Source: Octopus vulgaris (taxonomy: Eukaryota). Taken from it: a DNA stretch of 64,000 nt. Shown in pieces: positions 26,783 through 55,735 of this stretch. Position numbers and translations under genes: made by a program. Within the stretch, counting starts at the first letter, position 1. Each line of letters opens with the position of its first letter. A model generated the notes under the pieces. That model was not told where the DNA came from. It saw nothing but the letters and a program-made list of their open reading frames with translations, and did no database searches. The stretch spans positions 52,576,001-52,640,000 of the forward strand of contig OX597826.1 of NCBI GenBank assembly GCA_951406725.2, written 5' to 3'.

Positions 26783-28003
26783 TTGGCTGACCGGTTCGCG
26801 GAACACCTTCGTGACATCCACCTTGCGAACGACACACCGGTCTCACGCCATTTCTGCTCCACCGGTCACTCCTTGCAACACCTATCTGTGTTCGGTTTGT
26901 CCTTACACAGAGGCCATCCGGATTCCCGTTTGCGCCGTGAACAGGAATTAATCTTCTCTCTTCGCTCTTATACGCCATTTGGTCTTAACTCTCCCCCCCT
27001 CCTCATCTAACCCCCTCTCCCCCTCCTCACCTATCCTTTCTCCCCCGACCCCTACTTCTTCAGTCCTTCATCCTTTCACCCCTACTCCCCTTCCCTTCTT
27101 CCCTCTTTCTCCCTCCCTCTTCCCCTTCCCTCTGCTCCCTCACTCCCTCTCTCCCTTCTCTCTCCCCCTCTCCCTCTTTCCTCCTTCATCCCCCTCCTCC
27201 CCTTCCTTCTCCCCCATCATCTCCTCTTCCCCCTTCTCCTACCCCTCTTCTTCCCTCCCCATCTTCTTCCCCTCCCCTTCTCTCCCCCCTCTTCTCCCCC
27301 TCCCCTTCTCTCCCCCTTCTTCTCACCACATGACTTTACACATCACATCACATATGATGTGCCATACTAATACACACACCAGCTAATACATACTAATACG
27401 TACTAATACATACTAGTACATACTAATACTTACACCAACCCTATACATACACACGTCCAGACTCCGCATACGCACTTATACTCTCTCACACACACACACA
27501 CACACCTATACATACCAATACGTACTAATACATACTAATACATACTAATACATACACCAACCCCATACATACGCACGTCCAGACCAATCCTACGCACTAA
27601 TACTCTCTCATACACACACACACACACACACACCCTTATACATACTAATACATACACCAACCCTATACATACACACATCCAGACCCTCCCACGCACTTTT
27701 AGCTGGTCCCTCAACCCTTTTATCAACCCTATTATCTCCCCTTATTTCGCTCTCGCGTCTCATGTTTGATCTTTGACCTCTGGCCGAAATCAGATCGCCA
27801 TGTTGATTCGTTAGCTACTGCACGCATTTTTTTCTCTCCTTCTTTCTGTGTTTTTCTCTCTCTGTGTATCTTTCTGTTGATGAGCGTAGGCTCGAAACGT
27901 TAAAGACTTGTTTTATTTATATTTCCTGAGCGCCATACTAATACAATTGTTCGTTTGTTTTCCACCTGCCTTCGTCTTTTGTTTATTTTCATAAAGCTTC
28001 CCG

Positions 28004-28005
<2 letters not shown>
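26783..28005 (+). mobile_element. Second copy of the Neptune-like PLE 3' end
   Basis: Near-identical to 14578-15794 with the same 3' terminus GCTTCCCGTT; ORF ends FGLNSPPLLI* at 27010; flanked by (TA)n. Confidence 0.93.
27869..27906 (+). ncRNA. Minimal HHR-like motif, CUGUUGA core (copy 2)
   Basis: TCTTT-CTGTTGA-T-GAGC-GTAG-GCTC-GAAA-CG-TT-AAAGA. Confidence 0.7.
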
Positions 28006-28065
<60 letters not shown>

Positions 28066-28068
<3 letters not shown>

Positions 28069-28458
28069 CTTAGGGGTAGCCATATTGAGATGGCAAATAT
28101 ACGTCACGATGTGTTACCGCTACTGTATATAACTCACTTTGATATTTATCATTGTTTGATTTCACTTTTTCAATATCAGCGACAGTGGACGCTGGAAAAA
28201 GTATAAGTATTTGTGAAGGAAATCTAATTCTCGGCGACAACTATGATTGTCACACGCTGACGAGTGGTCAATACCTCGAAACTCGAGTCCGTGTGTATCA
28301 TAAGTTGAAGACGGGAAGGATGACTTCCCTTTGCAAATACTGACAGGACACAGAAAGTGTGTCTATGGCCAGCTGGAGGAGTGTGTCCTCCTGGTGCTAA
28401 AAACTACAGTAGCATCCACCCTTAGGGGTAGCCATATTGAGATGGCAAATATACGTCA

Positions 28459-28462
<4 letters not shown>
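28066..28462 (+). mobile_element. Retrozyme-like non-coding element: 352-nt unit plus 45-nt terminal direct repeat, in (TA)n
   Basis: ACCCTTAGGGGTAGCCATATTGAGATGGCAAATATACGTCACGAT at 28066-28110 and 28418-28462; central canonical HHR; several hairpins. Confidence 0.8.
28251..28295 (+). ncRNA. Canonical type I hammerhead ribozyme
   Basis: CACACG-CTGACGA-GTGG-TCAATA-CCTC-GAAA-CTCGAG-TC-CGTGTG; GUC cleavage triplet; palindromic stem III. Confidence 0.92.
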
Positions 28463-29785: not shown

Positions 29786-30480
29786 TTTCATTTCATTTCA
29801 TTTCATTTGAGTTTGAGTCCATGCTCAGGCCAAGTCGAAGACTCCGCCCTCAGAGTCTGGTGTGGTTGCCAGGTTGTATTCTCTGTTTAATTTTGACATG
29901 TGTAGGAGCGAGTTTGAGTCAGTTTGTGCTCGTTGTGTATATCCTGGGAGATGGGGTTCATCTCTAATGGTGCTTAAGTATCTATCCAGCTGCAATTTGA
30001 ATGATTCCACACTGCATCCTGATAGATTTCTGACATGTACCGGAATGGAGTTGAATAGTTGTGCTCCTCGAACCAACAGACTTGATTCTCGCAGGGTTTT
30101 TGCTGCCTGGCCAGCCTTTTTGTTGATTGGTGGTAACTGGCAGCGTCTTCCGTGGCGCAGTGAGTGGTAGGTTTTGATACCAAAGTTTGGCACCTTTTGC
30201 TCTATCATTTTCCAAATGTATATAATTCGGTATCGCTCAAATCTTCTTTCTATTGAGTACATCCTCAAGGTTTTGAGTCTTTGCCAATAGTCCAGGTCCC
30301 TCGTTTCTGAGAAGTATGAGGTAAAATTTCTTTGGAGCGATTCCATCTTAGATAGTTGGCCCTTTGTTGTTAGTGACCACAACTGAGAACAGTAGTCAAT
30401 CCTTGGAAGTATCATACTGTTCCAGAGGGTTTTCATTGTTGAGGTATCTCTTGATCTGAAGGTGCACAAGATCCACCCGC
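29786..30480 (-). mobile_element. 5'-truncated CR1-clade LINE 3' end with (AAATG)n tail
   Basis: ORF 29825-30469: IDYCSQLW, LDYWQRLKTLRMYSIERRFERY, LDRYLSTIRDEP..PGY...NSL. Confidence 0.92.
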
Positions 30481-31016
30481 TATTTAAATAATAGCGAAGA
30501 AGATCGAAACTTTTTCACAAATGTATGTCTTTTATGTAAGTTTAGGTATTGCATCTTTTGCCCACCTCATATTATAGAAAGAAGAATCATCACTTGTTTT
30601 GGTGAAGTTATTAAAGGGTGAGGGCAGAGAGTAGACTGCTCATCTCATATAAACTATAGTGCAAACTTACAGCTCTTTTGTTAAAAGCTTACCGAAATTG
30701 AATTTGTTTTCCATTATTTAGTGGTCAATAAAATTAGCATTAATATATTGAAATTGACGCAAATATTTATACCCTATTTGTTTTATAATATCATTTAACT
30801 AAAACCGGAATGGATACCACTGTAAATTCGGTAGTTTGGATCGTTTTCCTTATGAATATGTATGTACTATGCATATTTATAAACATATGCATATATGTAC
30901 ATACCGCCATTTATGTGTCATAAAATATGCATTTACCCTGTTGGAAAGTGGGATACCAATTTATTTTATTGATTTCTTTATTTTTAGAAAAAAATCTCCC
31001 CATTGACACAATATAC

Positions 31017-31358: not shown

Positions 31359-32255
31359 GTAGGAGGGGGTACCCAAAAGAAATGGAATTTTGCAATATCA
31401 CTTTATTCACTTAGTTTTACATGTTTACACTTTTACCACCTTCAAAGTATTCTCCATTTGAAGCAATGCATCTGTCCAGACGCGTTTTCCACCGTTCGAA
31501 GCAATATTGGAACTCTTGTGAAGTGTTGACTTTTAAAACCTCCGTCGTGTTTTTGTTTTTTTCATCACCTCCCCCACATCTGCATATTCCCTGGCACCAG
31601 CTAACATCATCAGTGAGGATCTTCGAATAAAGGTCCGGATCAATTTCCAAGTGTTCTTTGAAGTTCATGACTGCTTTTGACCATCCGTGAGCAGGCGATG
31701 CACACATTTTTCTACAACTCTTATCATTCGCAATTTCTCGCTCATAATTCGTTGGCAGGAGCTCCAGGACACATCAACCAGTTATATCAACAAGTTCGTC
31801 AATTGTTCAGTGACAGTCCTGCAAGTTCAGTTCATGAATTTTTGTGATGTTTTCATTCGTTCGGGAGGTCTACGATCGTCCTGGACGAGGTTGGTCTTCA
31901 AGTGACAAGTGACTATTCCTAAGCATGAAGGCCATTCATAAACTTGTTTTGTTTTTTGTTATGGCAGCGCCTTTGTAAGTTGTTTGAAGTGTGACAACTG
32001 TTTCGGCCGCCGTTTACCGCAGTAAAAAACAGAATTTCACACACGCACGCTGTTTCTTCGCTTCAGCCATCACAAAAATCGACGAACGGAGAAACCTTGC
32101 GAAACAAAGACGCACCCCGTGGAAGTACGACCAAACGCGACGATACCGGTCGGCAGCCTAATGCCTGAGGGCCACATCAAGTGATGTCTAGCGGCAGAAG
32201 CCAGAACTACAACGGGCTTGTCCCACACAGAACGTTTCCAGTTACTTTTCGGTAT
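31359..32255 (-). mobile_element. Internally deleted mariner element
   Basis: From 32070: MAEAKKQRACVKFCFLLR*TAAET...SLEDQPRPGRS...SKILTDDVSWC...FQYCFERWKTRLDRCIASNGEYFEG. Decayed TIRs TACCCAAAAGAAATGGAA / TTCCAGTTACTTTTCGGTA. Confidence 0.9.
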
Positions 32256-32317
32256 GTAATATGCACGTATGCATGCATATGTATATATAATATATATATA
32301 TACGCATACATACCTGC

Positions 32318-32404
<87 letters not shown>

Positions 32405-32411
<7 letters not shown>

Positions 32412-33029
32412 AATAAAAGAATGGAGTCGAACGAGGATTTTAACACAATTCCTTTAATTTTAACACATGTTTCGAAGACTGCATATTCTTAATTCTGAAG
32501 GAATAAGGTGCATTATGCCGTCTTCTCATCAGGAAAGTCAAGGAAAATCAATCAGCCTCAAGACGGACAAAAACTTTTCTATAGCTTGCTACATATTGAC
32601 CACAGTGATAATGAGTGATTTTAAAAATCCGTTAAAAGCAATGACGTCAAAAATGTTTGGAAGAGGAATTTATGAAAATAAGAAGGGGACAGTATGCATG
32701 CTGTATGAATATGGATGCGGGAGTGATTGCTCTGGTTAATAAGTTTTATTGCTTATGTGTGTGTATGAGTGTGTGTATATAACTGCATTTATGTCTATGT
32801 ATGTATATGTGTGTAGACATGTATAGGTAGGGGCCGGTTGTCAGATAAATATAGCAGTAAAGCGAGAAATTTATGTCTGTGTGTTTGATTGAGCGTATGA
32901 CAGAGATAGTTAAGTAGAAAGTAAGAGGGAAAGGTAGAGAGGAAGGGATGAACATACGCCAGTGACATATAATATCATTGTTTTATGTAACGGATTAGAC
33001 ATAAAAGGGACGTGAAATTAAATACTAAA
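32405..33029 (-). repeat. Inverted pLTR arm (~625 bp), partner at 35746-36370
   Basis: Reverse complement of 35746-36370, about five substitutions counted by eye. Confidence 0.97.
32449..32545 (-). ncRNA. Type I HHR in the inverted pLTR
   Basis: Reverse complement of 36229-36325, with a G>A change at the first stem I pair. Confidence 0.75.
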
Positions 33030-33088
33030 TTCATTCACCTACTTAAATATTTTTATACAGTTTCATTGAGAATCTGCTAACTTAACCG

Positions 33089-35719
33089 ATGCCGCAAATG
33101 GAGTTGTTCGATATTAACGCTTCCCTTAAGGACATACCAATACCACCAAAGGAAGCCTTCCTTAAGGAAATGGTTAACAAAACAAATGCATTTATCATCC
33201 GCATCAGATGGCTCGCATTCTTCCATGATAATGAGGACATAAAACGGAACAGTAGCGACGTATCCCTTCAATATGATAAACTTTTTAAGTCGAGGGGAAC
33301 CCCTCCACCAAATCCTAGACTGAAGAAATTTGTAGATGATCTGTGGAACATCGTAAAAAATATTAAGTTTCACAAATCACCCCTAAGAAATAGACACCTT
33401 AAATACCTTGATAAAATCACTAAAGACATTAACAGATTGGACGCTATCCTGGTCCAATCGGATAAAACCAGGAATATATATAAACTTACAAAGAACCAAT
33501 ATTTAGAACTATTCAAAAGAGAGATACAAAAAAATTACAGGACAACAAGTAAAAACAAACTCAAACAGGCCAACTTAGAAATTAAGCAAATCATGGAGAC
33601 ATATGGATTACAAATGAAAACACAACCGTTGAACCCTAGACAACCAAGATTCATCGTCAAGGACCACAAACAGAACTTTCACACAAACCCGGCATTGCGG
33701 CTCACATGCCCTTCTAGTTCCGACATCGATATCCTTAGTAAGTACATTTTAGATAAATATATACCCACATTAATCAATAAGTTAAAACTTAGCTTATGGT
33801 CTAACTCTACTCAAGTCGTAGAGTGGTTTAATTCTATTAATGATAAGGCAAACACTAAATTTATACAATTTGATATATCTAGTTTCTACCCTTCAATCAA
33901 CCCTAGTGTAGTTAATAAGGCCCTATGGCACGCGCACAATAAGGCAGTACTCTCCAGGAATGAAATTAATGTGATATTAGCAGCTAGAAAGTCTTTCATA
34001 CAGTTCGATAATAAGTTATGGGTCCGTAAAGATACTCCTAACGAGTTCGATGTACCAATGGGAAGTACAGACAGCGCTCAGATAGCCGATTTGGTCGGAA
34101 TTTATATTCTCTATGAACTAGCCGACCAATTTCCGGACATCTGTGGCGGTCTATACCGAGACAATTGTCTGCTTTACCTCCATAATGCTTCGAACCAAAA
34201 AAAATACAGAGGGTTAAGAATAGATTAGCTAGATTCTTTAGTAGAATGGGCTTGAATATAGTTTTTGATGATGAATTGACTAAAGCCAACTTCTTAGATA
34301 TTACCCTAAATCTGCAAAATAATTCGTACTTCCCTTACCATAAGCCTTCTACTAATCTTAAATATATCAGCATTTTCAGTAATCATGCCAAAACAATTAC
34401 CGATAATTTAGTTTAAAATATTTCCTTAAGACTTTCAAAATTATCTGCTAATGTTGACATTTTTAACGAAAAGGCTGAATTTTATAACGCCGCCTTGTCA
34501 AAAGCCGGGAATAAAAATAAACTGTCATACATCGATCCAGCCCATTCTAATCCAATATATATTTCCCAGAATAAGAAAACTCATAAAAAATTGAATAGCG
34601 ATAATTGTGGATTTGGTTCTAACCACGTCGGCACCTCTGTACATAAGATTAATAACTTACGGACCTGGGGTTGCAATCAACACCCAACCCCAAATTCACA
34701 CCATAGAAAATTTCCCTTTACTGTGAAAAGTAACACGGTGAGTAATTCTAAATCTACAAAAACCTATATCTGGTTTGTTATACCTTTCGGAAAACAACTC
34801 AAATCGAAACTTCCCTCACAGTTCCGTGAAGCAGTGGCTAGGAATTCTCCCAGGAATTCTAGGTATTATTCTATTATAAATTCACATAAGGTGAGAATTG
34901 CATTCTCTAACACTAGAAATCTTTCACAAATTATCGCTTCCCATAATAACAAGCTGCTAAACAGAGATCCTTCACCCGGAAGATCCAACGCTATTTTTAT
35001 CGATTCCAACCAAACATACAATAATATTAATAGAAATAGTATTGATAGTAGCAACATTCGTAGCAACGTTAGTGTAGGCAATGATAATATTAATAATAGC
35101 ATTAGTCGGGCTGATAACAATGATAGTGTTGATGGTATCAACAACAACATTTCTATTGCCAGGAATATTGCCGGTTGTAATGCAATTAATATTAATAATA
35201 ATAATGATAATAATAATAGAAATAATGTACGGGTTAAAACTAACAGTAATATTAACAGCAATCATATCATTAATAATTCAGTTTCAATCTCCGAAGGAAA
35301 CCATAACAGATTAAGGTTCTTGTCCAGATTAAGATTCTTGTCCAAAAATTAAGAATACAATTTACCAATGTAGAATTTCTACCGGTACCGTTGTCTTCTT
35401 TTATATTGGGGCAACAACTTCCAAATTATCAGAGAGAATTTCAAATCATTATTCAACGTTCCGAGATAAGAGAAAACAACAGAGCACAGGACTAAGTAAA
35501 TTAGTTTGGCGTCTTAAGGACAATAATATAACTTTTAAGCTGGATTGGTTCATATTGTCTGTATCCTTTCCTTTTGATAAGGGCAGGAAATTTTGCGGAA
35601 TTTGTATTTCCGAGCTCTACCATATAATTTTCCCCAAGTTCCATTTAGTTAACACGTTAACAGAAAAATCCTATAAATGTATGCACTGGCAAAAACATAC
35701 TTTTCATTCATACAAATGA
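33089..35719 (+). pseudogene. PLE polyprotein (RT, thumb, Asn-rich linker, GIY-YIG endonuclease), disrupted
   Basis: SLKDIPIP..IRIRWLAFF, SDKT, DISSFYPSI, FDVPMGSTDSAQIADLVG, GLYRDNCL; frameshift ~34200; NFLDITLNL..YFPYHKP..SNH; stop ~34414; frameshift near 35345; TIYQCRISTGTVVFFYIG..ERISNHYSTF..CGICISE..KCMH; TGA 35717-35719. Confidence 0.9.
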
Positions 35720-36228
35720 TAATTAATATTGATAACTTCTCTGTTTTAGTATTTAATTTCACGTCCCTTTTATGTCTAATTCGTTACATAAAACAATGAT
35801 ATTATATGTCACTGGCGTATGTTCATCCCTTCTTCTCTACCTTTCCCTCTTACTTTCTACTTAACTATCTCTGTCATACGCTCAATCAAACACACAGACA
35901 TAAATTTCTCGCTTTACTGCTATATTTATCTGACAACCGGCCCCTACCTATACATGTCTACACACATATACATACATAGACATAAATGCAGTTATATACA
36001 CACTCTCATACACACACATAAGCAATAAAACTTATTAACCAGAGCAATCACTCCCGCATCCATATTCATACAGCATGCATACTGTCCCCTTCTTATTTTC
36101 ATAAATTCCTCTTCCAAACATTTTTGACGTCATTGCTTTTAACGGATTTTTAAAATCACTCATTATCACTGTGGTCAATATGTAGCAAGCTATAGAAAAG
36201 TTTTTGTCCGTCTTGAGGCTGATTGATT

Positions 36229-36325
36229 TTCCTTGACTTTCCTGATGAGAAGACGGCATAATGCACATTATTCCTTCAGAATTAAGAATATGCAGTCTTC
36301 GAAACATGTGTTGAAATTAAAGGAA
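36229..36325 (+). ncRNA. Type I HHR in the 3' pLTR, extended stem II
   Basis: TTCCTTGACTTTC-CTGATGA-GAAGAC-(40 nt)-GTCTTC-GAAAC-ATGT-GTT-GAAATTAAAGGAA. Confidence 0.85.
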
Positions 36326-37029
36326 TTGTGTTAAAATCCTCGTTCGACTCCATTCTTTTATTCGTTTTAAATATTACACAAATTACCACACAAGAACACG
36401 GAGTTTCTACCCTTGGCATGTAGGTTCAACCGTATTTTCTGACGTGAATTTGCTACCCAGGTATCAGTTAACCGAATTATCAATACTAGGATAATTCATT
36501 CACCTACTTAAATATATATATATATATATAACTTGTTAATATAACAGTTCCGCAATGTATGTTCTCATATCGTAGAAAGAAAAGAAGCAAAACATAGGAT
36601 GTATCTTCATTTATATAACCAAAATATTTATATATATATAAAAAACATGCAAAAAACAAAAGAAGGAAACGAACGCGCAATACAGTGAGAAAAAGTATTA
36701 AAAATAACCGCCAACAGATATGGATGTATAAATCTCGCGTAAGCTGCATTGCGCGTGTACACTCGCGCATACATGCATCCACGAAAATGTAAGCATACGC
36801 ACACGCGTGATTTGGTGTACACATATTCACATAGCGAGTTAAATAGTTACTTGGTATTTATAAGAATGGGAAGTGTAAAGTTATATTTAATTCATCTATA
36901 CCTTAAAGTAAATTATATTGAGAGTTACTCAAATCCATTCCCCTGCGTTGTGCAAAAGTGCATTTATATGCATGTAGATCTCTTCAGAGTCTTTCAGAAA
37001 TTCTATTAATGATCTTCTCATTGGTCCAC

Positions 37030-37325
37030 AGATTAGACATCGCCTGGAATTGATATTTTATGGTTTTGTACACCTTATTATGGACCAAGTTATGTTATAC
37101 TTAATTTTATCTTCCTTCGAAATCGGCCAAAAATGTTGAATGTCTCCCTTTAATTCTCTTGAAGCTGGCGACATGGTTGTGATAACGGTTCTGAAATGAA
37201 TCAGCCGTCTGCCCAATGTAAACATACAACCCTCCTCTTGTGTGCACGGTACATTTATATTCAAGACTTTTACTCATGCAGAGATTCATCAATGGGCATT
37301 TTGATTTTTCCCTACATGAGCATTT
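37030..37325 (-). pseudogene. PLE GIY-YIG endonuclease fragment (same PLE type as 33089, different family)
   Basis: CSCREKSKCPLMNLCMSKSLEYKCTV...YVYIGQTADSFQNRYHNHVASFK...IKYNITWSII. Confidence 0.85.
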
Positions 37326-37452
37326 ATCATATATATTTGTATATATGACAGTTCTAACTTCATATAGTTGAAGATGTGAATCCTAAAAAGCGCAATACTC
37401 CGAATGTTGTCTATGTAGAAAAGAGTAATAGCTTAGAAGATAGACAGGACAA

Positions 37453-44224: not shown

Positions 44225-44284
44225 TATTTCCATTATTTCCATTATTTACATTTGACTGATATTTGTCCTCATCTTGTTTGTTGT

Positions 44285-44340
<56 letters not shown>

Positions 44341-44555
44341 CAACATCTTGTTTGTTGTCATAATAATAATAACATCGAAAAATACCTTAAGAATGAGAAC
44401 ACAGGTTCGAAATTTCCCCAAGACACCTGATGAAGGCTGGAGGGTATATCAGCCGAAACTTTGTGTTAACAACAGACAAGATGAGGACAAATATCCGTCA
44501 AATGTAAATAATGTACATAATGTACATAATTCCTCATCTCTTAAATATAGAACTG
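44225..44555 (+). mobile_element. Small PLE-pLTR-like insertion with inverted arm, (AAT)n and HHR
   Basis: 44238-44287 inverted at 44467-44515; lies inside the Gypsy remnant. Confidence 0.75.
44423..44466 (+). ncRNA. Minimal type I HHR
   Basis: ACAC-CTGATGA-A-GGCTG-GAGGGTATAT-CAGCC-GAAA-CT-TT-GTGT. Confidence 0.8.
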
Positions 44556-45597
44556 TAGATATATTTGTTGGAGGGGACATATTTTAAATCACATTTTCCC
44601 TGTGTGGATATGGTCAGCGTCCATTTTAATTAATGATATGCCCTAGATATTTAATTTAAGGTAAGAAAAATTCACGCTTCCCCTCAAGTGAAGCCGTAAT
44701 CCCTTATTGTTTCGAACACATTTTATATGCTCGACATGCTGATCACCCTATTCACTTTTAATTGATATACCATCCAGATATGCTATCGCGAAGTCACACT
44801 CTGCAAGCATCAAATATAGCCGGAGCAACTTTTATGTCAAACGGAAGCCGGTTAAACTTGCACAGACCTTTATGTGTATTGGTTATTAGTAGCTAAGAAT
44901 ATTCGCCTTCCACTTGTATCTGTAAGTAGGCATCAGACAGATAAAATTTTGAGAACAATTTACCACCATTTAATGTCAAGAATATTACCTCTGGACGAGG
45001 TAATGGGTAGTTATACTGTTTTAAACAGTCATTTAATTCCGTCGAGAAATCTGAAAAAACACGTATTTCATTGTTCTTTTTAACGTATATTGTTGGACTT
45101 GCCCAATCTGAATAATCTATCTCTTCAATCTCTCCAATTTTTTTCCAGTCTGTCTAATTCCTGTTTTACCTGTTTGAGTGCTGCAAACGGTACATTATAT
45201 TTGGGTTCGAAAACTGGTAATGTATTTTCTTTCCCCTGAAATTTGGTTTTGAATTTATTACACCGACCCATCTTGACCGGGAAAACATCACAAGACAACC
45301 TTCTCACTTCCTTCTTTAAACTTTCTGACCCTGTATTTGAACTGGTGCACGACCCCATTACATTTTTGCAAAAATTATTTATGGGTAAATCCCACGAGCT
45401 GAACATTTCCATTCAATCAGTTCAAAAAGGTTACTTGTATTTTAATACATAATTTTTCGTTTTTATAGACTTACGGCGAAATATAATGATACAAATAATT
45501 TCGCCTTTAAAAATAAATTTAATTCCCGAGAAACCACGGGCAGTTTTCGATGTTTTCTGCAGTGTAGGTTTCCCGATTTTTTCCATGTGTTTTCATT

Positions 45598-46630: not shown

Positions 46631-47175
46631 ATAATGAAGGAGACGGAAAATTGGGAATACGACTGTGTTTATTAACCACTACATTTGTTTCGTCCTATCA
46701 AGCATCGATCCCTCATGCGTGGGATACTGAACTGCTTTAGTAGTATCCGACGTTGTAAATGTTGTATATATCCATCTCTGTTAACGGTTTTTCGCTGTAT
46801 TGTGTATTCGTTACTTTTTGCATCTGGTATTTATTATTGATCTTATAAAGAAATGAAGCTGTATCCTTTAATTCGCCGTCTTATATAACACAAACCGAGA
46901 CGATATCTTGCAGAACAATCGTTATTTTAACGGGATACATTATTCAATCACTTGAAGAGACACATTTACAACGTCGGATACTACTAAAGCAGTTCAGTAT
47001 CCCACGCATGAGGGATCGATGCTTGATAGGACGAAACAAATGTAGTGGTTAATAAACACAGTCGTATTCCCAATTTTCCGTCTCCTTCATTATTTAGATA
47101 CCCAAAGAACACTGTGAAAATGAACGTGTTTGCCCGGGAACCTATGAGTGTGTATACCACACGATGTATTATCTA
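46631..47175 (+). mobile_element. PLE-pLTR-like element with perfect 132-bp inverted repeat and degenerate HHR
   Basis: 46631-46762 is the exact reverse complement of 46962-47093; AATCAC-TTGAAGA...GGAC-GAAAC-AAAT-GTA-GTGGTT. Confidence 0.75.
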
Positions 47176-53164: not shown

Positions 53165-55735
53165 TCTATTTTCTCCTCCTCCTTTTCTCTTTTCTTGCCT
53201 CTGATTCTTTGGTCTACTCTTCCCCCACTCTCTCACATTTCTCTGTCTTTCTCACTTTGCACCTCAATGATTCTGTCGCCAAGCCAATCCTTGGCACGCT
53301 CTCTTTCTTCTCCCCTCTTTAATTGTAGAAAAATACAAACTGGGACAAGAACGTAAAACATTTAGAAGACGATACTAGCAACACGGACGGGACATTCGAA
53401 GCCTTCAATCTTCCGTCAAGAACCGGATCATCCTCGCAATTTCGGCTGATTAATCTTGAGATCGCTCCGATCCGGCCAGCTCCAAGGAAAATCTAAGCTC
53501 CGAGCATTAGATTTCTTGGAAAAAGGATCGAATGTGTACGAAACAAGGACAGAAAAACGGACGATGCCACACGAATATAAATACAAAAAACAATAATAGT
53601 AATAACAGGACAAAAACAGCGGGTGTCTTACGACTAATAGACAGTACAACTTAGTTTAGCTGGCGTATTACGACTAATAGACAGTACAACTTAGTTTAGC
53701 CGAAAGTTTGGTTGACCAGCGGTCACGTGAGAGGAGAAGAGAGAGAAAAGAAAGGGGGTAAAGGAATCAAAGAGAGAGAGAAAAAGAAGGACGAAGGCAC
53801 CAAAGGGGGGAGAAGAGAGAGAAAGAAGGAATTAAAGAGGGGAGAAGAAAGAGAGCGTGCCAAGGATTGGCTTGGCGACAAAATCAGTGAGGTGCAAAGT
53901 GAGAAGGACAGAGAAATGTGAGAGAGTGGGGGAAGAGTAGACCAAAGAATCAGAGGCAAGAAAAGAGAAAGGGAGGAGGAGAAGTAGCGAGAGAGAGAGA
54001 GAGAGAGAGAGAAAGAGACAGATCAAAGTAGAGTGCAAAGTGTGAAAGGCAGAGAAATGTAGGAGAGAGAGACAGTGTTATAGAGTCGTACCAAATTTAA
54101 AGGAATATGTACATACATACAAGGCCAAAGAGGGTATGGGCGTCGCTATATATATTATATGTAGAAAAATACAAACTGGGACAAGAACGTAAAACATTTA
54201 GAAGACGATACAAAAAACACGGACGGGACATTCGAAGCCTTCAATCTTCAGTCAAGAACCGGATCATCCTTGCAATTTCGGCTGATTAATCTTGAGATCG
54301 CTCCGATCCGGCTAGCCCCAAGGAAAAACGAAGCTCCGAGCATTAGATTTCTTGGAAAAAGGATCGAATGTATATATGCGTATGTATGTCTGTTTCGATG
54401 TATGCACCCCATTTTCTCCAGCCCACCCTTGTCCTCCTTTAAATGCGCCCGTAACCTACACGATCTACTGATCCGTATCATCTTCTCCTCTTCCCCCTAG
54501 TCTCAAACGGATCCTTCCCTTGCTCTAGATCCCGCTGCCAACACCACCTCCTTCACTGGATCCCACTATCACACTCTCCACATTAGAAACTCCTCCTACA
54601 GCTCTTCAAGCATTACCTATTGCATTAGATGTAATCTCTGTAATACACTCTGCGCACGAACAACCCCGTCGCACGTCATTTCTGCTTGGCCGACCAATCT
54701 ACCGCTGATATCTCAGTTTTTGGCCTCGCTCTGCACCACGGATCTATACACTCACGACTCCGCCAGGAACAGCGTTACATTTTCAGTCTACACACACAAA
54801 TTCCTTTCGAACTCAGCACAACCCATCCTCTTAACGACTGTCTCTACAAACTCCTTAAAAAGAACTTTTTGTTTTATTTTAGTTTATTTTATCTTATCTT
54901 ATCCTCCCTTATACCACTTACTTTTTTACAGAGTCAGTCTTTTTTCGATTTGTTATCGTTTTCTTTCTGTCGAATTGTTTAACCTTTTAATTGCATTCAT
55001 TTTTTTTATAATAGTATTAATTTGATCCCTTTAATTTTAATTATTTTATTTTTTACTTTTTATCTTGTATCTGTTATTTTTGCAATTTTTATTCATTTTT
55101 ATATTTTTACATCTTCTACCCTTCCCCCTTTCCCTCCTTTTTATCGATTTTTAAAATTATATTATATTTTATTTCTGTATACACACATACATGCACACAC
55201 GTACATATACACACACGCACAAATACACGCACACGCGCACACACGTGCACACAACACACATACATGCACATACACACACACACACACATACATGTACACA
55301 CACATACACACACGCACATGCACACGCACACACGCGCATACACACACATGCACACGCACACACGCGCATACACACACACATGCACACGCACACACGCGCA
55401 TACACACACATGCACACAGGAACACACATATACCTCCACACACACACACAGAAAGCCACACACACACTCACATACACACACGCTCATACACACACGCACA
55501 AATACACACATACGCATGCATACATACCATACGCACACACACATGAAAGCACATGTACCTCACATATACCTACCACATGTTTTGCTGGTTGCACTTTTCT
55601 ATACATCCGGCCAAGTGATACAGGCATCTCTCAAGCCATTGTGGTTTTCGGTCCTCCTCTCTTTCTTTTACCTTCTGCTGGTGTCCTTTTGAAACCTATT
55701 TTAATCTGGAATAAATGCTCTTAGCTTAGACTTTT
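53165..55735. mobile_element. Rearranged Neptune-like PLE cluster: inverted 3' UTR pieces, two minus-strand pLTRs and a plus-strand GIY-YIG remnant
   Basis: 53172-53324 inverted at 53830-53982; 53325-53535 repeated at 54160-54372; 54405-54830 encodes FSSPPLSSFKCARNLHDLLIR..ITYCIRCNLC..ISVFGLALHHGSIHSRLRQEQRYIFSLHT, homologous to the 14514 element. Confidence 0.8.

Follow-up and report, generated by a model that had tools for sequence, protein, structure and literature searches.

Positions 32405–36515 of the stretch of Octopus vulgaris DNA analysed here (64,000 nucleotides of contig OX597826.1, called the window below and numbered from its first letter) very probably hold a full-length but inactive copy from an undescribed Penelope-like element (PLE) family of the Hydra clade, as judged from its sequence. 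The copy lies between inverted pseudo-long terminal repeats (pLTRs), and we consider the whole explanation given here, namely a dead Hydra-clade copy together with the origin proposed below for its arms, to be likely. By itself the single locus matters little, being a dead copy in a described layout; it offers a clean example for the question of how PLEs form inverted pLTRs, and it adds a high-copy Hydra family which has an unusually long hammerhead helix II, lies below the Rfam and Pfam thresholds and could be misclassified by repeat annotation as a terminal inverted repeat (TIR) transposon.

Layout, coding frame and clade of the element

An earlier reading of the same DNA, made from the letters without database searches (the sequence-only reading), had described in order a (TA)n run, an inverted pLTR, a 23-bp direct pLTR stub, a frame joining a reverse transcriptase (RT) to a GIY-YIG nuclease, a full pLTR and a further TA run, and every one of these parts was located. 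The features are as follows (ORF, open reading frame; UTR, untranslated region).

32277–32406, no strand: (TA)n microsatellite target, left
32405–33029, minus strand: inverted pLTR, in which 625 bp of the element's 3' UTR are copied in inverted orientation with a 5' truncation; identity with 35745–36369, 99.0%
32451–32543, minus strand: type I hammerhead of the inverted arm; the core is intact, and helix I has a mismatch in its first pair (32461)
33028–33050, plus strand: direct pLTR stub of 23 bp, equal to 36493–36515, with a 2-bp overlap with the inverted arm
33092–34201, plus strand: ORF piece 1, with the N-terminus, RW (33200), DKT (33458), RT motifs A and B, and YRDN (34154–34165)
34192–35315, plus strand: ORF piece 2, with the remaining palm and thumb, an insert of ~60 amino acids and the Asn-rich linker; stop at 34414
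35312–35719, plus strand: ORF piece 3, with C-P-x4-C as the final half of the linker knuckle, and with GIY-YIG; stop at 35330
35720–36515, plus strand: 3' UTR and direct pLTR, terminating in TTAAATAT (36508–36515)
36231–36323, plus strand: type I hammerhead of the direct pLTR, core CUGAUGA at 36242, predicted cut after GUU, 36312
36513–36531, no strand: (TA)n target, right; next comes another Hydra-type fragment, opposite-facing and with its 3' side towards the target

The inverted arms of the sequence-only reading were recovered as 32405–33029 pairing with 35745–36369 at 99%, the former differing from the reverse complement of the latter by six substitutions in 625 bp and by no insertion or deletion. 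Its description of paired pLTRs of ~625 bp held for these arms but not for the repeats as a whole, because the direct 3' repeat continues 146 bp past the portion that is inverted, leaving the two ends of the element asymmetrical. The pLTRs looked for in a PLE are thus present as 625-bp inverted and 23-bp direct repeats. The outer ends of both arms fall in TTAAATAT (36367–36374 and 36508–36515), a motif with three sites in all in the 3.5-kb unit, besides the stub. At the inner junction, position 35745 (the start of the 3' UTR) is joined to 36493 (the pLTR end); the arm and the stub overlap there by 2 bp, with a further 7-nt match 4 nt upstream, where AATACTA precedes the stub and matches 36482–36488. 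The junction is neither a palindrome nor a mirror image.

The RT motifs named earlier were all found in the window frames (DISSFYPS at 33869, FDVPMGS at 34046 and YRD at 34154), with the correction that the catalytic motif reads YRDN (34154–34165) and not YRDD, the form present in 27 of 28 full-length relatives. A profile built from these 28 relatives aligned with the copy in three frame pieces, covering 1–361, 358–558 and 571–706 of its 709 positions; since this alignment spans nearly the whole profile, the ORF has its full length although it is broken. Five lesions were recorded: besides YRDN, there are two frame changes, one at an A run near 34200 and the other near 35315, and two stops, at 34414 and 35330. 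Because of YRDN, the two frameshifts and the two stops, the copy, as it reads, is dead and produces no enzyme now. A 147-bp short-read contig (record 5 of public run X1, which is possibly the source of the assembly) equals 34082–34228 without a difference, including 34154–34205, and for this reason YRDN and the first frameshift are not base-calling errors.

The C-terminal GIY-YIG domain was confirmed by the profile of 28 relatives (E=1.9e-26) and matched Pfam PF01541 at E=0.004, weaker than the curated cut-off; RT and GIY-YIG share one ORF, broken in the copy examined. The Asn-rich linker at about 34980–35300 includes a (TAA)n run and is covered by family contigs as well, and inserts of an Asn-rich type have been reported in rotifer Penelopes (PMC3846280). 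An 18-bp tandem at 35307–35344 was considered as a duplication lesion and dropped, since it aligns to the natural C-P-x4-C. Pfam detected neither the RT of the copy nor that of any of the four full-length relatives scanned, a PDB sequence search with a 31-row profile gave no matches, and the viral_contigs set yielded 70 pattern matches with no relatives among them. A phmmer search returned 3561 relatives, the best being 43% identical across the whole query. When an AlphaFold model of the RT (pLDDT 89) was compared with the PDB by Foldseek, the first 13 rows were all telomerases (TERT; best E=1e-6), and VIA-align also placed TERT on top (Z 11.2, root-mean-square deviation 5.0, 262 aligned); telomerase as the first structural match is what is expected of a PLE RT.

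The Hydra clade has been characterized by RWK, by DKT (from DKG), by a CxCX5C linker, by the lack of CCHH, by CxxC and CxH around E and N, by canonical hammerheads and by (TA)n targets (PMC8557442). The octopus element resembles these PLEs in its single ORF of RT and C-terminal GIY-YIG, and in DKT, RW, the lack of CCHH, CxxC/CxH, the type I hammerhead and (TA)n; the identification as a PLE with Hydra-clade motifs, made in the sequence-only reading, is supported by these traits and by the telomerase-like RT model. SDKT stands at 33458, with DK[TS] in 26 of the 28 relatives and DKG in one, and RIRWL at 33200 takes the place of RWK, its W being invariant in all 31 aligned rows (RxRW[KR] is found in 17/28 relatives). 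The GIY-YIG domain has one Cys and no CxxC between the GIY and YIG equivalents, and CCHH is absent from it and from all 28 relatives; CxxC precedes the conserved E (CGICISE), and CxH follows the conserved N (N...CMH). The C-P-x4-C part of the linker knuckle is readable, and the full CxCX5C occurs in 17 of the 28, including the two nearest full-length relatives, P0002 and P0006. The (TA)n on both sides is the insertion target of the Hydra type. Compared by eye with Fig. S7 of PMC8557442, the motif blocks fit the Hydra rows and not those of Penelope/Poseidon, Neptune or Nematis. In a tree of 75 rows the element fell into a six-row group with support 100.

Certain observations weigh against this placement: RWK reads RWL; the first two Cys of CxCX5C are missing in all three frames, at a spot damaged by a frameshift and a stop; the VIA-align score of TERT is tied within 1 Z with those of R2 and LINE-1 (long interspersed nuclear element 1); and the 75-row tree was made without named PLE references.

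The family appears to differ from known ones, its best protein relatives in the searched sets being 41–43% identical over the full RT piece. PMC8557442 lists an octopus family, Hydra-1_Obim, from which the present one differs in N-terminus and hammerhead, judged by eye. Unlike Hydra-clade PLEs in general, whose units are generally <3 kb, the octopus locus has a unit of 3.5 kb, and it further departs from them in its Asn-rich linker, its 800-bp 3' UTR, RWL and the CxC missing in this copy.

Origin of the inverted arm and age of the copy

The inverted arm is no surprise, because it is a described pattern of PLE insertion and is on record for a Hydra-clade family. Inverted 5' copies are common among PLEs, and Penelope-13_HM is annotated as having, at the 5' end, an inverted copy with a 5' truncation, and a hammerhead on each strand (PMC8557442 and its supplement); the layout is already known for the clade, and the locus is a new family in a described arrangement. 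Among the relatives are 78 metagenome loci, 60 of which reach the nuclease end with 3' flank. One of them, L075, is a 5'-truncated Hydra-type element with inverted pLTRs (204–434 and 2194–2419) that are 94% identical and hold a hammerhead each; both arms stop at the same site, which adjoins the TA run of the 3' end, and the inner junction is not palindromic. Inverted pieces were seen by eye in 5/78 loci, clearly in L075 and as short pieces cut by the contig end in L031, L037, L049 and L052; direct repeats at contig ends were left out of the counts as possible assembly overlaps. The Penelopes of Adineta vaga and Drosophila virilis also bear inverted pLTRs but belong to another clade, with a CCHH nuclease, and their junctions are often palindromic with a 30–40-bp tail, in contrast to the 146-bp offset and the lack of a palindrome at the octopus locus (PMC3846280).

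Purified PLE protein has been found to cut and extend both strands, to start within the RNA and to prefer uncleaved RNA, and the reactions of PAc, a Poseidon element of Anolis carolinensis (internal RT starts, cutting and extension of both strands, uncleaved hammerhead RNA as template), are compatible with the locus (PMC11167929). It is established for PLEs that an RT-GIY-YIG protein nicks AT-rich DNA and, with no prior hammerhead cleavage, copies from internal sites an RNA spanning more than one unit. We propose that, at the octopus locus, the symmetrical (TA)n target primed complementary DNA (cDNA) with each of its two strands. One cDNA, primed at the TTAAATAT site at 36508–36515, would have run for 3.5 kb and entered the upstream repeat, with the 23-bp stub as the result; the second, primed at the site at 36367–36374, would have run for 625 nt. 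Joining of the two cDNA ends by microhomology at 33021–33029 would then give the inverted pLTR in one event. The arms span the predicted cut at 36312, so that the template was uncut there. Such twin-strand priming with microhomology joining seems to us somewhat more probable than otherwise as the origin of the arm. Twin priming is known as a LINE-1 process; the term was not found in the PLE literature searched, subscription papers lying outside the scope of that search.

The proposal has evidence to contend with. The TTAAATAT motif was picked after inspection, the ends are offset by 146 nt as against the usual 30–40-nt tail, and the Poseidon element tested in vitro started reverse transcription without homology to the cut DNA, PAc starting at an AC-rich stem loop without target homology, unlike the ends of the octopus locus, which sit at TA-like motifs (PMC11167929).

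Age is the point on which the strongest alternative turns. In public runs the family is covered over its full length in two organisms, mostly 85–95% alike, and 2791 of the 3984 family contigs in X1 are <95% alike (counted over the whole stretch, the neighbouring family included). Eight of 24 ORF differences from family contigs, these being the best-supported among those listed, are synonymous, versus a random expectation of 27% (p=0.30). The ORF looks neutrally decayed beside arms that are 99% identical, a mismatch with two readings, namely recent copying of a dead template in trans, or an older insertion with homogenised arms. We put the chances at even that an intact relative, acting in trans, copied a template that already carried defects. 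It is rather unlikely, in our judgement, that the insertion is old and that its arms were kept alike by arm-to-arm gene conversion, or its left arm copied in later, while the ORF decayed. The six differences in 625 bp between the arms, when most family contigs are <95% alike, speak for such a history, as does the resemblance of the synonymous fraction to neutral decay, limited as that is to the best-supported subset among the differences listed. Pieces from organism B lie ~3% from the copy, similar to its flank piece (records 26, 29 and 32), and if they should be orthologous, conversion would be favoured, a count of no more than six differences between the arms being then improbable (Poisson p=0.0006). 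Pieces that are nearly identical and have greater depth (X1 record 5; X2 records 22 and 24) would instead fit a small young subfamily, depth not being copy number.

A second alternative is fold-back, in which the inverted arm arises by self-priming on an antisense template. This model was put forward for the Penelopes of Adineta vaga on the strength of palindromes where inverted copies join (PMC3846280), and it predicts a palindromic junction, but none is present at the octopus locus (35745 to 36493) or at the inner junction of L075. The TA-like ends and the non-palindromic junction, taken as read, favour two-strand priming over fold-back, and we hold the latter to be very unlikely here.

It is highly improbable that faulty assembly produced the inverted arm, or that the arm marks two unrelated family copies abutting. 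Tandem and inverted PLE arrays do trouble assemblies (PMC8557442), and no contig among those listed bridges the 33029/33030 junction, which counts against our reading and proves nothing either way. Six scattered arm differences argue against a copied read, however, and arm identity of 99%, set against a family likeness of mostly 85–95%, argues against unrelated copies; in addition, the outer end is clean and TA-primed, microhomology is found at the junction, one organism B contig joins 32438 to 33031, and L075 and a published family have the same layout. Finally, a DNA transposon with 625-bp TIRs, carrying a PLE in a vehicle like a miniature inverted-repeat transposable element, would account for the inverted termini and TA flanks but can practically be discounted, since the arms consist of the 3' UTR of the PLE itself, hammerhead included, the right end is 146 bp longer than the left, and 32405–36515 contains no transposase frame, its internal frame being RT-GIY-YIG.

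Hammerheads, small elements and double-stranded RNA

The hammerhead cores of the twin arms begin at 36242 (plus strand) and 32532 (minus strand). Rfam gave no hammerhead match in the window at either threshold; a hand-made type I descriptor, with 30 block shuffles as control, found three full type I motifs there (6061, 28257 and 36242) versus a shuffle mean of 0.2. The hammerhead at 36231–36323 is predicted to have the core and three helices, with a 52-nt helix II region and a 3-bp helix III. The claim of a hammerhead in each arm stands as far as the core is concerned, but the left copy, with its first helix I pair mismatched at 32461, misses the full descriptor and loses helix I in a constrained fold. 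Our own scan found a downstream type I hammerhead in 40 of the 60 metagenome loci with 3' flank, and in 40/40 hammerheads among these relatives the helix II region measures 10–25 nt versus the 52 nt at the octopus locus. Per transcript, one hammerhead alone is sense, and a read-through RNA would hold it within the arm duplex. Since its helix III has only 3 bp, this hammerhead probably depends for cutting on another copy in the same sense (PMC4209133), and such a copy is absent from the locus.

Other family copies have a different, longer sequence in place of 36478–36495, before the terminal 23 bp, including a CUGACGA half-core, and they also differ upstream of the hammerhead. Family depth climbs steeply within the final 300 bp, which hints at numerous short derivatives of the 3' end.

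Small hammerhead elements were seen at three places in the window. The one at 28066–28462 (plus strand), a retrozyme-like monomer with a 352-bp unit, a perfect 44-bp direct repeat and the canonical type I hammerhead at 28257, lies between two (TA)n runs and resembles non-LTR (long terminal repeat) retrozymes, of which PLEs are published candidate mobilisers (PMC7229834; bioRxiv 10.64898/2026.07.22.740005). The one at 5965–6216 (plus strand), with the hammerhead at 6061, also lies between TA runs, and its helix II region of ~50 nt is PLE-like in length and not in sequence. The third, at 44225–44560, combines a minimal hammerhead (44427) with a (TAA)n run and has an inverted 5' piece of its own (44225–44285, 90% to 44468–44528).

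The sequence-only reading had suggested the family as the enzyme source for these elements, which fails for the octopus copy, its RT being dead by the lesions given above; that interpretation is thus only partly supported, in its clade and not in its enzyme source for this copy. When 5965–6216, 28066–28462 and 44338–44560 were compared with the pLTR, none scored above shuffles (146, 296 and 24 of 300 shuffles, respectively, reached the sense-strand scores), and no sequence link to the PLE pLTR was found for the retrozyme-like element. The 3' end of 44338–44560 resembles the last 25 nt of the PLE, as the best non-self match with one query, while with another query, run over 7971 windows, an unrelated site scores equally; this likeness may serve as a lead only. 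Other TA-targeting PLE remnants occur in the same window, and with a second Hydra-type fragment next door, other possible partners exist.

The idea that the arms would give double-stranded RNA, a substrate for ADAR or for small interfering RNA, follows from their base-pairing: a read-through RNA would pair the arms, with a computed energy of about -1117 kcal/mol for the duplex. Counts of A>G and T>C in run X13 resemble those of DNA runs; X13 is RNA by guess, its contigs are uninformative on strand and editing, and it is accordingly silent on ADAR. A broader scheme, which we rate as distinctly unlikely, would have Hydra-type PLEs make inverted pLTRs by twin priming and the family mobilise both its own dead copies and small hammerhead elements bearing its terminal ~25-nt motif, the arms being kept alike by conversion as a standing source of double-stranded RNA against the family.

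Neighbouring features

No recognisable host gene was found among the long frames of the window (nine scanned). Positions 37004–37331 (minus strand) belong to a second Hydra-type PLE family, of which they represent a 3' fragment. Its CxCX5C-P-x4-C knuckle is intact, and it includes GIY-YIG (profile E=5e-16); it stands tail to tail with the main element across the TA run at 36513–36531 and is well covered by family contigs, and our own scan found no hammerhead in it. A decayed GIY-YIG-like remnant at 54501–54850 (plus strand), with a CxxC in its core (YCIRCNLC), a PVARHF motif and no Pfam match, is one that we take to be a PLE of the Neptune/Naiad type. The frame at 31420–31773 (minus strand) has no Pfam match, and its end is presumably the C-terminus of a mariner transposase. 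A LINE-type RT remnant is present at 10628–11920 (plus strand; RVT_1, E=1e-22), and we assume that 29828–30514 (minus strand) is another.

Two copies of a ~1.2-kb duplicate (14577–15793 and 26783–28004) are 99% identical, contain C-rich repeats and each adjoin TA runs, and they possibly represent another TA-targeting element. Inverted pairs were also seen at 46634–46762 and 46962–47090 (129 bp, 100%) and at 53235–53324 and 53830–53919 (90 bp, 97%), the latter interrupting a duplicated 215-bp segment.

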